Sequence record: PZ179882.1
Source: a phage
Strand: one strand, 5' to 3'
Length of the DNA: 64,000 nt
The translations under genes were made by a program, and so were the position numbers. Under the pieces are notes generated by a model that was not told where the DNA came from, made no database searches, and saw only the letters and a list, made by a program, of their open reading frames with translations. Positions within the stretch are counted from its first letter, which is position 1. Every line of letters begins with the position of its first letter. This document shows, piece after piece, positions 16,149 to 31,894 of this stretch.

Positions 16149-17051
16149 TTAAGATTTAAGTAAATCAACAATTTTAATTAACTTTTCACGCTCAGATTTA
16201 GCTTTACTACTCAATCCAGATAGTCTGAAAATTTCATCATCATATTGCTGAATAGAAATATTTAGCTCTTCAATCTGCTTATTAAAATAAGCAATTTGTT
16301 CAGAATGTTTTTCATTACTGCGAACTGGTACAGGTTTTGTAGGTAATTTAGTTGAACTGGATTCATCTGGGCGATAAATTAAAATGCAATTTGAACCAAT
16401 CGGACATTTAGCACCAGACACATATTCTAATGTTCCGGCTTCTTTTAAAACTTCAAAAGCTAAACAGAGATGATGCCCCATATTAACATAATCTGTAGAG
16501 CGAGCTCTGATGTAATAATCATCTCCACGAGTACTAAATTTAAAGCATTTAAGGTCTTCTGTATTATTGGTCTTAAAAATCATTTGTTTATCTAGACCTT
16601 TAGCTAATCGAGCGCCTAATGCTAATAATCGTCGTTGATTTTCCCACAAATCCGCAATCATTTGGTCAAATGATAATTTCGGCATTAGTCGACCATAAAG
16701 GTCATATCCTTTATTATAATTGCGAAGGATTTCACTCGCATTAATACGAGACAACGCTCCAATTTTATTAAGGGCTTTCATGATGCGATTAGATAAACCC
16801 ATTCCAGATCCGTTTGTTCGTTGCAAATGTTTATCTAATCCAAACCCAATATCAACTTTAAATTTATCTAAAATTTCAGCATGAACATCTCTGTCAATAA
16901 CATTCAAATCCAAAGTTGGGTTAAATCTATGAAAAAATTTATCTGGCTCTCCACGACGAAGTACAGTCCATTCATTTAATTTTTTATTAACTAAAGATTT
17001 AATTACTGCATTGACATTATTAATTACTACTGACATATTTTCCTCACTCAA
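16149..17051 (-). CDS. Paralog-array protein P4
   Basis: 300 aa; motif WENQRRLLALGARLAKG; C-terminal coiled coil. Confidence 0.6.
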   Translation of the reverse strand: MSEENMSVVINNVNAVIKSLVNKKLNEWTVLRRGEPDKFFHRFNPTLDLNVIDRDVHAEILDKFKVDIGFGLDKHLQRTNGSGMGLSNRIMKALNKIGALSRINASEILRNYNKGYDLYGRLMPKLSFDQMIADLWENQRRLLALGARLAKGLDKQMIFKTNNTEDLKCFKFSTRGDDYYIRARSTDYVNMGHHLCLAFEVLKEAGTLEYVSGAKCPIGSNCILIYRPDESSSTKLPTKPVPVRSNEKHSEQIAYFNKQIEELNISIQQYDDEIFRLSGLSSKAKSEREKLIKIVDLLKS

Positions 17052-17452
17052 TTTTCAATTTTACTAAATATACAGAATAAGATGGAACAGACTATATAAG
17101 CACCACACACAGATTGAACTAATACCATTCCAAAGAACCAAACAATATTATCAAACAATGTCTGTTTTACGTCGAAAGGACGTAAACTTACAGTAATATT
17201 ATCACCTTTTTCTATTGAAGAATACATCTCTGGGGAAATATATTCACTAAATCTATAACCGTCTTTGAGTTCATATACGGCAATAAACGATAAACTAGAC
17301 CCTTTTCCTTGTGTTCCTGTAATGGTATTAACTACAGTAACATCATAATCTTTATAATGCATATAATCATTAATTGCGTAATAACCATATGCAACTACTA
17401 TACATAAACAACATATCAATAAATTCAATCTTTTAATTATCAACCGTTTCAT
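17048..17452 (-). CDS. Membrane protein, two TM segments
   Basis: 134 aa; hydrophobic N- and C-terminal segments; ATGA overlap with P4. Confidence 0.55.
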   Translation of the reverse strand: MKRLIIKRLNLLICCLCIVVAYGYYAINDYMHYKDYDVTVVNTITGTQGKGSSLSFIAVYELKDGYRFSEYISPEMYSSIEKGDNITVSLRPFDVKQTLFDNIVWFFGMVLVQSVCGAYIVCSILFCIFSKIEN

Positions 17453-25849: not shown

Positions 25850-26035
25850 TTAAAGCGTATTCACATAAGCTATTAATTCGTTTTCTTTCTTATCAAACCG
25901 ATCAGCAAATTCTTCTTGCTGATCGGGAGATAGCGGGCCGTATTCATCATAAAAGGTGTTTGCTTCTGTATGCTCATCTAGAAGTTCATGGATAAGCTCA
26001 AACAATTTATCTTTTTGTTCTTTACTCAGACTCAT
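25850..26035 (-). CDS. Hypothetical acidic protein
   Basis: ORF track 61 aa. Confidence 0.5.
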   Translation of the reverse strand: MSLSKEQKDKLFELIHELLDEHTEANTFYDEYGPLSPDQQEEFADRFDKKENELIAYVNTL

Positions 26036-26201
26036 ATATTAATTTCCAGGAGTTTTAAAATAATTCGCTTTTGCTTAAATATTTCCATAGTTAAATGACC
26101 AGTATCTTTTTGACCGATTCCAATGGCAAAACCTTTATTGACAGCGAGTTCAATTAAATTATCAAGCTCACATAACACTTCATATTGTAACTCAAAACTA
26201 T

Positions 26202-26429
26202 TCATTTTGGTTTACCTTCTTTAACGAAATCAGGATAAGGATAAAATCCTGAATAAAATCCTTCGCCTTTATGATTGACGCATCCTTTATTAGAGCAATA
26301 GCACCAATAATCGAAATCACAAGCCATTTCATCATTACATAAAGCAAAAACAACTGGCCATTCACACTTTTCGCAGTGGGCATTTTTAAGAATACTAGTT
26401 TGGCTCATAACCATGTAACCTTTAAACAA
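26202..26429 (-). CDS. Cys-rich small protein
   Basis: ORF track 75 aa; 11 cysteines; preferred over overlapping hydrophobic frame 26198..26383. Confidence 0.45.
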   Translation of the reverse strand: MFKGYMVMSQTSILKNAHCEKCEWPVVFALCNDEMACDFDYWCYCSNKGCVNHKGEGFYSGFYPYPDFVKEGKPK

Positions 26430-26617
26430 TATTCTTCTACATGTTGTTTACGACCTTTCCTATCAATAAAGGTATATTCAACGAATGTTCCAATATAGTC
26501 TTTATCTACATCATGTGGACTATTAATTGGGCATTTAGTACGGCAAATGCGTTCCCATTGACGAATAATTTCCACTTTGTTTTTAGGATCAAACGGATGC
26601 GGGTAATGTACTTTCAT
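26405..26617 (-). CDS. Hypothetical protein
   Basis: ORF track 70 aa. Confidence 0.45.
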   Translation of the reverse strand: MKVHYPHPFDPKNKVEIIRQWERICRTKCPINSPHDVDKDYIGTFVEYTFIDRKGRKQHVEEYCLKVTWL

Positions 26618-27068
26618 AATCCACCACTATTAAATCAATATCAGGAGTAAACATGTCGATTAATTTAGAAACCTTATCCCAATCGCCGCCAGCAATACCG
26701 CAACCTATGCGTGGAATGTAAATTACTGGTTTAAACAAAAGGGTTTCTGCCTGTAGATTTAATTCTATCATGCAGTTTACTAAAGCACCATAATCAAGAT
26801 TAGGACCCGGTTCGTATTGCGTATACAGGTTATAGCATATACCAAATCCTGTAGGATTATGTTTAAAAACAATAGACATATCACCTAATTTATCACGAGA
26901 ACCGTACTCGGTAGTGGTTTTATCTATTTCTAAAATTTTGGGATAGGCTCTTGCTAATTGACCTGCTACGCCAGAGCCCATTGTGTGGAAGCAATTACAC
27001 CCGTGCGCAATAATATTACCTTGAAGAAATAGGGCGACAATATCGCCCTTGATATATTTTACAATCAT
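26589..27068 (-). CDS. Macro-domain-like protein
   Basis: 159 aa; GDI...IIAHGCNCFHTMGSGVAGQL and IPRIGCGIAGG parallel the macro-domain N-terminal and FP-ISTG motifs. Confidence 0.55.
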   Translation of the reverse strand: MIVKYIKGDIVALFLQGNIIAHGCNCFHTMGSGVAGQLARAYPKILEIDKTTTEYGSRDKLGDMSIVFKHNPTGFGICYNLYTQYEPGPNLDYGALVNCMIELNLQAETLLFKPVIYIPRIGCGIAGGDWDKVSKLIDMFTPDIDLIVVDYESTLPASV

Positions 27069-27412
27069 CTAGTACTCAATCCTCGATTATAAGAATCTAC
27101 TAAACGGTCAACCATTGAATGACAAGCGGCTTTATCTTTCTCCTCCGCAACTGAACATTCTAAGGTATTCCACTTTTTAGCATATCGTTTTAACAATGTA
27201 TCATTTTTGTATCTGCTTGATTTATCTCTTTCTCCGTCTTTATATGCATATATTAATTTCTGCGCAAATTCAGCTTGGCATGCTTTATTTTTCCCACAAT
27301 AATCCGCGGCAGTACGGTTTACATACTCTCTAATTTCAGTATATGATGTATCTGCTAACGCAGAAGCAGAAAATGAAATTAATCCTATACATAAAACCAA
27401 AATTTTAGTCAT
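27065..27412 (-). CDS. Secreted small protein
   Basis: 115 aa; N-terminal signal-peptide-like MTKILVLCIGLISFSASALA. Confidence 0.5.
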   Translation of the reverse strand: MTKILVLCIGLISFSASALADTSYTEIREYVNRTAADYCGKNKACQAEFAQKLIYAYKDGERDKSSRYKNDTLLKRYAKKWNTLECSVAEEKDKAACHSMVDRLVDSYNRGLSTR

Positions 27413-27950
27413 TTACTATTTCCAAAAGTTTATTATTTTTAAGGTAATTAGCCTTTTCTAGGACTTCAGAAGCATATTTAGAACCTGCTTTAACATTCCA
27501 TCCCGAATTATAAGAGGATATTGCTTTTCTTATATCGCCCTTATGTATATTTAACCAATAAGAAAGTTCAATGTACGCCCAGGAAGCTGAATTGGACCGT
27601 TTATTCAACATTCTTTTTATTTCAGCATCGGTCATATTATAACCAAGTTCCTTAACTCTTGCTCGCATAGTAGGCAAATAATTTTGGAACATTCCATAAG
27701 CGTGATGCTTTGGTTTAGATTTTAAATTAACTCCGCCAGAGCTTTCTTGCCATAAAATAGCAGCCATTATATGACCTAATCCGCTCTTGTGGATATTTTT
27801 GTGTGTTTTATATTTTCCATCCTTAGAAAATTGTTCCCCGAATTGATACGCGTAACGCATGTTATCGAGTTGGACATTACTGAAAGTATGCTCGGAGCTA
27901 TGTGCCATCATTGAAATGGCCAATAGACCAGCGAGTAGTGCTTTTCTCAT
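27405..27950 (-). CDS. Secreted lytic-transglycosylase-like protein
   Basis: 181 aa; signal peptide MRKALLAGLLAISMMAHS; WQESSGGVN...YGMFQ resembles SLT catalytic ES and GLMQ motifs. Confidence 0.55.
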   Translation of the reverse strand: MRKALLAGLLAISMMAHSSEHTFSNVQLDNMRYAYQFGEQFSKDGKYKTHKNIHKSGLGHIMAAILWQESSGGVNLKSKPKHHAYGMFQNYLPTMRARVKELGYNMTDAEIKRMLNKRSNSASWAYIELSYWLNIHKGDIRKAISSYNSGWNVKAGSKYASEVLEKANYLKNNKLLEIVND

Positions 27951-27957
27951 GCTTACC

Positions 27958-28419
27958 TCATTGAGTTTTAATTACTGCTTTAGAAGCCTTTCCTGGTAAA
28001 CGACGACTGTTAATAATTGCCATCCTACATTGAAGTGACGGGTCTTTGAACTTCGCATTAGGTTTACAAACTGTAAATCCAAGCCAAAGATTTCCATCTG
28101 TGATTTCTAAACGTCCAGGACGGTATTCAACCCCATCAATAAAATCCTCATCAATGTCAGGACGCGGAGGCATACTCAGGAATTCATTAACTTCTAAAAC
28201 ATGGTCTTTTATTTTATGGAATAATTCAAAAACATATGTCTCATCAATCTCCCGTTGAATTGCACGATCAAGAAGATGTTGAGAATATTTTAGATGAAAC
28301 GATGAGACTCCTGCTGCTTTTGATGCCTCACGAATCTCATTGTTAATTTGACGAAACTCCGACTCAAAGTGACGACGAAGCTTATTTCGACGGATAAAAA
28401 CTTCTGTATTGATAGTCAT
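27958..28419 (-). CDS. regB: Endoribonuclease RegB
   Basis: 153 aa; MTINTEVFIRRNKLRRHFESEF... recognised as T4 RegB. Confidence 0.85.
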   Translation of the reverse strand: MTINTEVFIRRNKLRRHFESEFRQINNEIREASKAAGVSSFHLKYSQHLLDRAIQREIDETYVFELFHKIKDHVLEVNEFLSMPPRPDIDEDFIDGVEYRPGRLEITDGNLWLGFTVCKPNAKFKDPSLQCRMAIINSRRLPGKASKAVIKTQ

Positions 28420-28446
28420 GTTATTCTCCTCTTAACTGATAGAAAA

Positions 28447-28476
28447 ATTATACCACAGTCAAGAGGAAAAGTAAAC
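28447..28476 (-). promoter_or_regulatory. T4 early-type promoter upstream of regB
   Basis: GTTTAC 28476..28471, TATAAT 28452..28447. Confidence 0.6.
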
Positions 28477-28478
28477 AG

Positions 28479-28757
28479 TTATTCTTTAAATCTAATCAAT
28501 TTATTCATAGACTTTGAAACTTCTGCACGAACCTCATGTAGATTTTTGAGCTGTTCAAGACGCTGCTCATAGTAAGCAATTTCATCTTCTTCGAGACAGT
28601 CCTGTGAATCTTCTTTAAGATAACGTGCATAGTCCTGGAAAGCGTTACGAACTACTTCCTGGAAGTCATCAAGACTTTGAATTTTCTTAGGAGCAACAGA
28701 TACACGACGAGGGGCAGTATAATACTCATAACCAAACCCTGCGCTTAATTGAGCCAT
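28479..28757 (-). CDS. Hypothetical protein
   Basis: ORF track 28479..28799; ATG at 28757 overlaps upstream stop (TAATG); 92 aa. Confidence 0.5.
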
Positions 28758-29023
28758 TAATATTTTTCCTCTGGTTGGAACACTGCGCGACAAGCCCACA
28801 TACTGGCTTCTTTGAGTTTCATTTTAGCAATAGTTAACTGATCGAGGCTTTCGGCGTAATTCTTCGCGAGTTCATCATCTTCACAGCTATCAAATGCTTC
28901 CCAGAATTCATCATATAAAGCATCAAAGATAAGCCCTAAACGAACTTCAGCATCTTTGATAGCATTCACTTTACTGATTTTATCGTCAGTATGTGGTTTA
29001 TAACCTTTAATGTCTTCAATCAT
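28757..29023 (-). CDS. Hypothetical protein in the position of T4 vs.4 (Acb2)
   Basis: ORF track 88 aa; second ORF downstream of regB; assignment is positional only. Confidence 0.45.
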
Positions 29024-30616: not shown

Positions 30617-31033
30617 TTAAATGTAAATATTTTTGCCGTAATACTTATACCAGTGTGGCTTCATTAAAATTTTTTCATCGAGTCGTTGTTGACTCAACTT
30701 AATAGCTGATTTGCATGGATTATAATCATTTTTCCATTCTACTGGAATATCGCTGATGTCAGGAACTTCAGTATCTTTTATACTAAACCCACGTTTTAAG
30801 CATTCCGTTATAATGTCTGATTGACGCTTTCGCAAAAATTCTAACTTATCGTAAAAGAACGTAACATGACCAGAACCTAAAATAAACTCGGAAGATATTT
30901 TAAAATCTTTAACCCGCTTACCATTTGCCACGTGTTTACGAACTATACCAAAAACACGTGGCAATTCACGATACTCAGCCATAAGATGTTGGTCGGTCAG
31001 TTCAGAAACAAGTGTTAAATTGATACGAGTCAT
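30617..31033 (-). CDS. denV: Endonuclease V (pyrimidine-dimer DNA glycosylase)
   Basis: [12 protein letters not shown]...[14 protein letters not shown] matches T4 DenV; ATG at 31033 with GGAGGAAATT RBS; 138 aa. Confidence 0.88.
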
Positions 31034-31060
31034 AATTTCCTCCAAGTAGTTGATGAATGT

Positions 31061-31090
31061 ATAGTATCAAAGTCCTTGGAGGAAGTAAAC
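31061..31090 (-). promoter_or_regulatory. T4 early-type promoter upstream of denV
   Basis: GTTTAC 31090..31085, TACTAT 31066..31061. Confidence 0.55.
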
Positions 31091-31091
31091 A

Positions 31092-31894
<803 letters not shown>

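Follow-up and report, generated by a model that had tools for sequence, protein, structure and literature searches.

Vs.1 and Vs of a T4-type phage: a predicted exported family-1 lytic transglycosylase and an adjacent, predicted exported four-cysteine protein

The family-1 lytic transglycosylases (GH23) include housekeeping enzymes such as Slt70, MltC, MltD, MltE and MltF, as well as small, specialised periplasmic enzymes, among them EtgA of the type III system of enteropathogenic Escherichia coli and its relatives IagB, IpgF and VirB1 among the lytic transglycosylases of secretion and motility machines. In phages, T7 gp16 and phiKZ gp144 are packaged in the virion, lack signal peptides and act at DNA entry. 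In T4 the gp5 lysozyme is inhibited 1:1 by Spackle (gp61.3), a small, helical, signal-peptide-bearing and disulfide-containing periplasmic protein (PMC7650644). The subject here is the gene pair vs.1 and vs, located at 27065..27950 on the minus strand of a 64,000-nucleotide stretch of phage DNA (PZ179882.1), which in its full length is called the window. From the sequence alone, an earlier reading of this region (the original prediction) had proposed that both genes are made early and encode proteins with Sec-type signal peptides, and that the product of 181 amino acids (aa) resembles a lytic transglycosylase. In the analysis reported here, Vs.1 is predicted to be an exported lytic transglycosylase and Vs a second exported protein.

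The window represents a T4-type phage genome, in which positions 26500..28500 are 99% identical to those of Tequatrovirus genomes such as Shigella phage CM8 and are for the most part spanned by 574 phage records. The region 27065..27950 consists of exactly two minus-strand open reading frames (ORFs) with an 8-nt overlap. The 181-aa ORF is vs.1, 100% identical to the annotated T4 protein, while the 115-aa ORF is vs, 99% identical to T4 Vs, the single substitution falling within the signal peptide. A resemblance of vs.1 to SLT enzymes was published by Nolan et al. 2006, corroborating PSI-BLAST matches in the 2003 T4 genome review (PMC1524935), and some GenBank records name the product a "transglycosylase SLT domain-containing protein" or "lytic transglycosylase". 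The SLT prediction for vs.1 is already known and is here rediscovered on a firmer structural and evolutionary footing. Nolan et al. 2006 is the sole paper found on vs.1 function, and Petrov 2010 makes no mention of vs.1 or vs. The original prediction had missed the named T4 genes, the published SLT similarity and the valyl-tRNA synthetase (ValRS) label of vs, which clashes with the secreted-protein features of its product.

Vs.1 is matched by the Pfam SLT family with an E-value of 1.4e-5 and 25.1 bits, above the curated gathering cut-off of 21.3, and the same family is matched by 27 of its 30 homologues, down to 40% identity. The AlphaFold2 model built on these 30 homologues has a predicted local distance difference test score (pLDDT) of 88 and a predicted template modelling score of 0.82, with low confidence only at the first 20 and last few residues. 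In a Foldseek search with this model, ranks 1-35 are all occupied by lysozyme-fold enzymes, mostly of GH23 (MltD, a GH23 chitinase and Slt), and the lysozyme-like, mostly alpha-helical SLT fold of family 1 is found in Vs.1. A profile of diverse homologues searched against Protein Data Bank (PDB) sequences has EtgA as its best match (E 0.005), with AIAWQES of Vs.1 aligned to AIAWNES of EtgA, including the catalytic Glu, and YNAG aligned to YNAG; a profile of close homologues gave merely a sub-threshold match to a g-type lysozyme in the same sequence set. In PHROGs, Vs.1 falls in phrog_600, of unknown function, with weaker matches to lytic tail proteins and endolysins, while NCBIfam has no match for Vs.1 or Vs. 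The identity of Vs.1 as an enzyme of this family is well supported by the fold, the profile matches and the motif set described below.

Relative to the housekeeping family-1 enzymes, Vs.1 lacks the lipobox and the superhelical, LysM and ABC-like accessory domains, carries G-M-F-Q as its motif II and shares just 13-19% identity with them. It differs from EtgA in being phage-encoded, with no plasmid or bacterial relatives found, in having a family-specific N-terminal extension and in lacking the Asp before the hairpin Gly; we know of no machine component partnering Vs.1. It is also unlike the virion-borne phage enzymes, since a protein synthesised only once infection is under way and equipped with an export signal should be absent from the virion. 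The original prediction had listed DNA entry among the possible roles, and this role is ruled out for the producing phage, as synthesis of the protein follows entry of the genome. The other roles that it had named, superinfection exclusion and cell-wall remodelling, are speculative.

When 1.84 billion representative proteins were searched exhaustively with a profile, 417 members of the Vs.1 family were recovered, nearly all of 160-200 aa. Conservation was counted over 133 aligned family representatives obtained by 50% clustering. The motif strings on which the original prediction had drawn, W67-Q-E69-S-S-G-G-V-N (residues 67-75) and Y85-G-M-F-Q89 (residues 85-89), are present in Vs.1. Conservation of the putative catalytic Glu, which had been set beforehand as a test, is complete, E69 and S/T70 each being kept in 133/133 representatives. 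Within motif II, G86 is found in 128/133, position 88 is F in 81/133 and Y in 33/133, and position 89 is Q in 72/133 and H in 46/133 (Q or H together in 118/133). The equivalent of the A-Y-N-x-G motif is likewise retained (Y147 in 131/133, N148 in 112/133 and G150 in 132/133), as is Tyr159 of motif IV (131/133). E69, G86, F88, Q89, Y147, N148, G150 and Y159 are invariant among the 30 homologues, and E69, G86, Y147, G150 and Y159 remain so when distant homologues at 28-39% identity are added from Cronobacter phage S13, Felixounavirus, Kuttervirus, Pseudotevenvirus and a Vibrio phage. In the model, E69 lies at the C-terminal end of helix 59-70, and strands 84-85 and 90-91 flank G-M-F-Q; a Glu at a helix end with the motif in the next beta-hairpin is the canonical arrangement of SLT enzymes, as in Slt70-type structures. 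That Vs.1 could be a catalytically dead peptidoglycan-binding protein, as its marginal sequence similarity to characterised enzymes would allow, is very improbable, since strong purifying selection acts across the representatives on the catalytic Glu and on each of the four family-1 motifs.

Sharing of the fold and of the catalytic Glu also leaves room for a hydrolytic muramidase of the goose-type lysozyme or EtgA-like kind, in which water would be the nucleophile. GH23 holds both enzyme types, EtgA is the best profile match of the family, and at position 84, which corresponds to the EtgA Asp by its spacing to the hairpin Gly (Y-D-I-G-I-M-Q in EtgA), Asp occurs in 27/133 representatives. In T4 Vs.1 itself this position is Ala, and Ala or Ser occupies it in most relatives; moreover, T4 Vs.1 has no acidic residue between E69 and Q89. 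This single-carboxylate layout is typical of lytic transglycosylases and favours such an activity over that of a hydrolytic lysozyme, and both S-Y-N-x-G and Tyr159 are family-1 motifs, so that a muramidase is considered unlikely by a wide measure. Further features of the family lie outside these motifs. E128, a second acidic residue within A-Y-I-E-L-S-Y-W, is kept in 116/133 representatives and W132 in 128/133, while a conserved N-terminal extension of residues 20-60, with Q27, N30 and G38 invariant, lies outside the Pfam SLT match. E128, W132 and the extension are specific to the family.

The Sec-type signal peptides claimed for both proteins were assessed by a heuristic analysis of n-, h- and c-regions. 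By this heuristic, the layout recognised by Sec and signal peptidase I (a positively charged n-region, an uncharged hydrophobic h-region 7-15 residues long, and a small residue at both -3 and -1) is found in both. Vs.1 begins with MRK, followed by an uncharged hydrophobic core of 13 residues and A-H-S before a Ser, with the cut predicted after residue 18, and Vs begins with MTK, followed by a hydrophobic core and A-L-A before an Asp, with the cut after residue 20. These segments are poorly ordered in the models, with pLDDT values of ~55 over residues 1-20 of Vs.1 and below 50 at residues 1-8 and 13-20 of Vs. The window has 131 ORFs that reach 60 aa or more, and a crude signal-peptide rule is passed by only five of them, namely Vs.1, Vs, the known secreted antiholin RI, an uncharacterised ORF and a spurious overlapping ORF; the feature is therefore no mere background of an AT-rich genome. 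The layout is also conserved, a hydrophobic uncharged N-terminal segment being found in 117/133 Vs.1 relatives, where most exceptions resemble truncated or mis-started gene calls, and a signal-peptide-like N-terminus in 76/77 Vs family members. Although T4 Vs.1 has no cysteine, exactly two Cys occur in the mature part of 70/133 relatives, and in four aligned relatives (S13, a Felixounavirus, PhaxI and Vibrio phage D508) they lie near both ends of the mature domain, a pattern that suggests a periplasmic disulfide. Together with the cysteines of the Vs family described below, these pairs point indirectly to an oxidising compartment. With signal-peptide features on both proteins, an SLT fold and an invariant E69, the observations that had been named as capable of overturning the original prediction did not materialise.

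The same N-terminus might instead be a signal-anchor-release (SAR) or membrane-tethering segment, keeping Vs.1 inactive up to the point at which the membrane potential is dissipated by the holin, so that the enzyme would act as an auxiliary at lysis with endolysin e and the spanins. Ala, Gly and Ser are frequent in the core of the segment, the homologues in S13 and Felixounavirus have spanin genes next to them or close by, one homologue being annotated as 'putative lysin', and for T4 RI a SAR segment and a cleavable signal peptide have likewise long been debated (PMC8385771). At ~13 residues, however, the uncharged core is shorter than expected of a segment that crosses the membrane, and a canonical A-x-S site comes directly after it, vs.1 is early and is not expressed with the late lysis genes, and a complete T4-type endolysin is already encoded in the window. 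A SAR-type lysis enzyme is therefore about as improbable as a muramidase, or slightly more so. The endolysin gene, e, is separate from vs.1, as the original prediction had held.

Early synthesis, also part of the original prediction, is borne out by time-resolved omics of T4, where the RNAs of vs.1 and vs fall into the early class and their proteins appear in the middle period (PMC9697503, supplementary files 4 and 6). Detection of the Vs and Vs.1 proteins in these data indicates that both are really made. A promoter scan of the locus found no more sites than in shuffled sequence and was not used for timing. Under the mechanism proposed here, vs.1 and vs would be transcribed early within the regB-vs.1-vs-tk.4 run, and the Vs.1 precursor would be exported by Sec and cut by signal peptidase I after Ala-His-Ser18. 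The mature form would be a soluble, basic (isoelectric point ~9.7) periplasmic enzyme of 163 residues with a goose-lysozyme/SLT (GH23) fold, in which Glu69, at the helix end facing the beta-hairpin with G-M-F-Q, would serve as the single acid/base catalyst. The enzyme would cleave the beta-1,4 bond between N-acetylmuramic acid (MurNAc) and N-acetylglucosamine to give a 1,6-anhydro-MurNAc end, the lytic transglycosylase reaction. We infer export and cleavage of both proteins from their N-terminal sequences, and the catalytic activity and product of Vs.1 from its motifs and model. The job of Vs.1 might be to loosen or turn over the sacculus, in a limited and controlled way, after infection and ahead of lysis, which could make room for the envelope-spanning lysis machinery or allow prolonged growth in lysis inhibition, and Vs, once exported, would be a periplasmic four-helix bundle stapled by two disulfides and plausibly a partner or regulator of Vs.1.

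Vs belongs to PHROG 1256 (E 1.6e-39) and its homologues carry Pfam PF26829 (ValRS_modifier), while a Pfam scan of Vs and its distant relatives gave nothing credible and a direct phmmer search of Vs against PDB sequences gave no match. The AlphaFold2 model comprises a confident four-helix domain (helices 22-39, 43-63, 70-86 and 91-112) preceded by unstructured residues 1-20. Four cysteines, C39, C45, C86 and C97, are each kept in 77/77 family members from phages of Escherichia, Klebsiella, Enterobacter, Pantoea and Acinetobacter, while most other positions drift and identity falls to ~25%, and in the model the cysteine pairs sit at the H1/H2 and H3/H4 hairpin turns. From sequence and model, Vs has the marks of a disulfide-bonded protein of the periplasm, at odds with a cytoplasmic annotation. 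A lipoprotein reading of Vs was rejected, as L-V-L-C (residues 5-8) lacks a small residue at -1 and lies too near the N-terminus. The predicted mature Vs has 95 aa and 11.0 kDa, compared with 13.1 kDa for the precursor, and the factor purified by Muller and Marchin in 1977 is said to have been nearer in size to the mature form.

The annotation of Vs is everywhere that of a valyl-tRNA synthetase modifier, and the target it implies is cytoplasmic. This function goes back to the biochemistry of Muller and Marchin (1975, 1977) on a T4 factor of ~10 kDa that binds ValRS, as cited in PMC8076793. ORF 60.9, with which vs is equated, is an unnamed ORF in the 1986 sequence record. Vs may be a cytoplasmic modifier of the host synthetase whose hydrophobic N-terminus is unused for export, its adjacency to vs.1 being mere synteny. 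The long-standing annotation, the binding-factor biochemistry and the Pfam family name all speak for this, and the gene order of the whole region from vs.1 through tk.4 and tk to rI is conserved. Retention of the signal-like N-terminus and of all four Cys despite the drift in identity, with unstructured N-terminal residues and cysteines at hairpin turns in the model, speaks for export, and a purely cytoplasmic Vs is regarded as unlikely, though less so than the other alternatives weighed here. The preferred reading, an exported Vs, finds a parallel of a general kind in Spackle, which Vs resembles in overall build only (small, helical, predicted exported and Cys-bearing). The vs gene overlaps the end of the gene for a predicted muralytic enzyme, and Spackle also provides a precedent from the same phage for an enzyme/inhibitor pair. 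Vs might be an exported, doubly disulfide-stapled regulator or inhibitor of Vs.1, not (or not only) a tRNA-synthetase modifier, and the two a second Spackle-like pair, a proposal that is speculative and probably wrong. If it were true, the wall could be remodelled without premature lysis, and the decades-old ValRS assignment to the vs ORF would be wrong, indirect or due to mixing of compartments in extracts.

Relatives of Vs.1 occur in 2,046 phage records, from Straboviridae of many hosts, Ackermannviridae and Ounavirinae. None was found in plasmids by tblastn, and none in 185,579 bacterial and archaeal genomes, taken as one genome per species. By this distribution Vs.1 is a subfamily of large virulent myoviruses. 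The vs gene was detected in 796 phage records, and at all vs loci inspected it is the first or second gene downstream of vs.1, with one extra ORF between the two in some Pseudotevenvirus-like genomes. In a contig whose Vs.1 and Vs proteins are 38% and 23% identical to those of the window, the two genes remain directly adjacent, the stop of vs.1 overlapping the start of vs. In Cronobacter phage S13 (2998..4180 of the locus retrieved), the vs.1 homologue lies between alc and the i-spanin/o-spanin genes, directly upstream of and overlapping the first of these. In the Felixounavirus Escherichia phage adrianh (3001..5259 of its locus) it follows rIIA-rIIB and lies beside pseT, ~1.2 kb from the spanins. 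The same order of rIIA-rIIB, vs.1-like gene and pseT occurs in a Kolesnikvirus phage, with no spanin annotated in the stretch inspected, while the neighbours in Kuttervirus and the Vibrio phage are uninformative. The spanin neighbourhoods lend weak support to an envelope or lysis connection, in which a wall-remodelling role would be linked to the lysis apparatus.

The overall reading, an exported Vs.1 lytic transglycosylase with a probable sacculus-remodelling role together with an exported Vs, is given a probability of about 0.72. Several points weigh against it. The Foldseek E-values of Vs.1 are just ~6e-3, a direct phmmer search of Vs.1 against PDB sequences gave no match, the solved lytic transglycosylases being below detection, and motif II is the variant G-M-F-Q rather than G-L-M-Q. 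The searchable literature yielded no enzymatic, localisation or genetic data on Vs.1, and the absence of premature lysis needs explaining if a periplasmic muralytic enzyme is present from early infection. Vs reportedly binds and modifies the cytoplasmic host ValRS (cited in PMC8076793), which is hard to square with export. Adjacency to spanins comes from two lineages only, in phages of mosaic gene order, and vs is missing beside vs.1 in the inspected loci of an Aeromonas T4-like phage, S13, Ounavirinae and Kuttervirus, so that Vs is no obligatory partner of Vs.1. For the separate parts of the reading, the wall-loosening role is a guess that has the odds against it, and an interaction between Vs and Vs.1 is hypothesised at longer odds still.

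The features of the locus are collected in Table 1. All three junctions of regB, vs.1, vs and tk.4 are tight, and the Shine-Dalgarno site of vs.1 corresponds to an annotated rRNA binding site in X04567. The overlap of vs.1 and vs, an equally tight junction being found in distant phages, would be consistent with translational coupling of the two genes. The vs stop and tk.4 start share ATGA, through which the start of tk.4 is coupled to the vs stop; the macro-domain protein encoded by tk.4 is labelled 'phosphatase' in databases. Just inside the 5' end of tk.4, at 27031..27049 on the minus strand and starting 16 nt past the vs stop codon, an 8-bp GC-rich hairpin is followed by a U-rich run (AGGGCGAUAUUGUCGCCCU AUUUCUUC). 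The 61-nt segment with this hairpin has a folding energy of -14.3 kcal/mol (z = -2.2 relative to shuffles), and partial termination or RNA stabilisation at the vs-tk.4 boundary is a possible role of the hairpin. Rfam has no match within 26000..29000.

Table 1. Features of the vs.1/vs locus and of genes referred to in the text (positions in the window)
Feature	Position	Strand	Remarks
regB, upstream neighbour	27958..28419	-	Pfam REGB_T4, E 1e-68
Shine-Dalgarno sequence of vs.1, GAGG	27956..27959	-	Overlaps regB stop codon (27958..27960); read from sequence
vs.1 coding sequence, 181 aa	27405..27950	-	Predicted exported family-1/GH23 lytic transglycosylase
Predicted Sec signal peptide, vs.1 codons 1-18	27897..27950	-	MRKALLAGLLAISMMAHS, cut before S; heuristic
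Pfam SLT match, Vs.1 residues 61-154	27489..27770	-	
Motif I, codons E69-S70	27741..27746	-	Putative catalytic Glu
Motif II, codons G86-M-F-Q89	27684..27695	-	G-L-M-Q equivalent in beta-hairpin
Motif III, codons S146-Y-N-S-G150	27501..27515	-	A-Y-N-x-G equivalent
8-nt overlap ATGACTAA	27405..27412	-	vs start codon and vs.1 stop codon
vs coding sequence, 115 aa	27065..27412	-	Database label 'valyl-tRNA synthetase modifier'; four-helix, four-Cys protein, predicted exported
Predicted Sec signal peptide, vs codons 1-20	27353..27412	-	MTKILVLCIGLISFSASALA, cut before D; heuristic
Four invariant Cys codons of vs	27122..27298	-	C39 27296..27298; C45 27278..27280; C86 27155..27157; C97 27122..27124
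tk.4, downstream neighbour, macro domain	26589..27068	-	Pfam Macro, E 5.8e-8
Endolysin e	31370..31858	-	Separate gene, complete T4-type

Two further observations concern other parts of the window. In the interval from denV to endolysin e (30617..31858, minus strand), a single 98-aa ORF (31092..31388) stands where T4 has ipII and ipIII, and the endolysin of this phage has 162 aa, which together identify the window as coming from a T4 relative rather than from T4 itself. A 134-aa ORF at 17048..17452 on the minus strand, assigned to PHROG 2547 of unknown function, has a strongly hydrophobic, Cys-rich N-terminus beginning MKRLIIKRLNLLICCLCIVVAYG and passes the signal-peptide heuristic.

The topology predicted for Vs does not fit the function given in textbooks, and this conflict is the point of the locus most deserving of a bench test. 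It allows an annotation that has spread widely to be challenged by inexpensive tests; hundreds of GenBank records give vs as 'valyl-tRNA synthetase modifier' and some just as 'valyl-tRNA synthetase'. Vs.1 would be the third muralytic enzyme of the best-studied phage, after gp5 and endolysin e, and it alone among them has a predicted Sec export signal. Knowledge of its role could explain how wall integrity is kept up or adjusted in infected cells before lysis.

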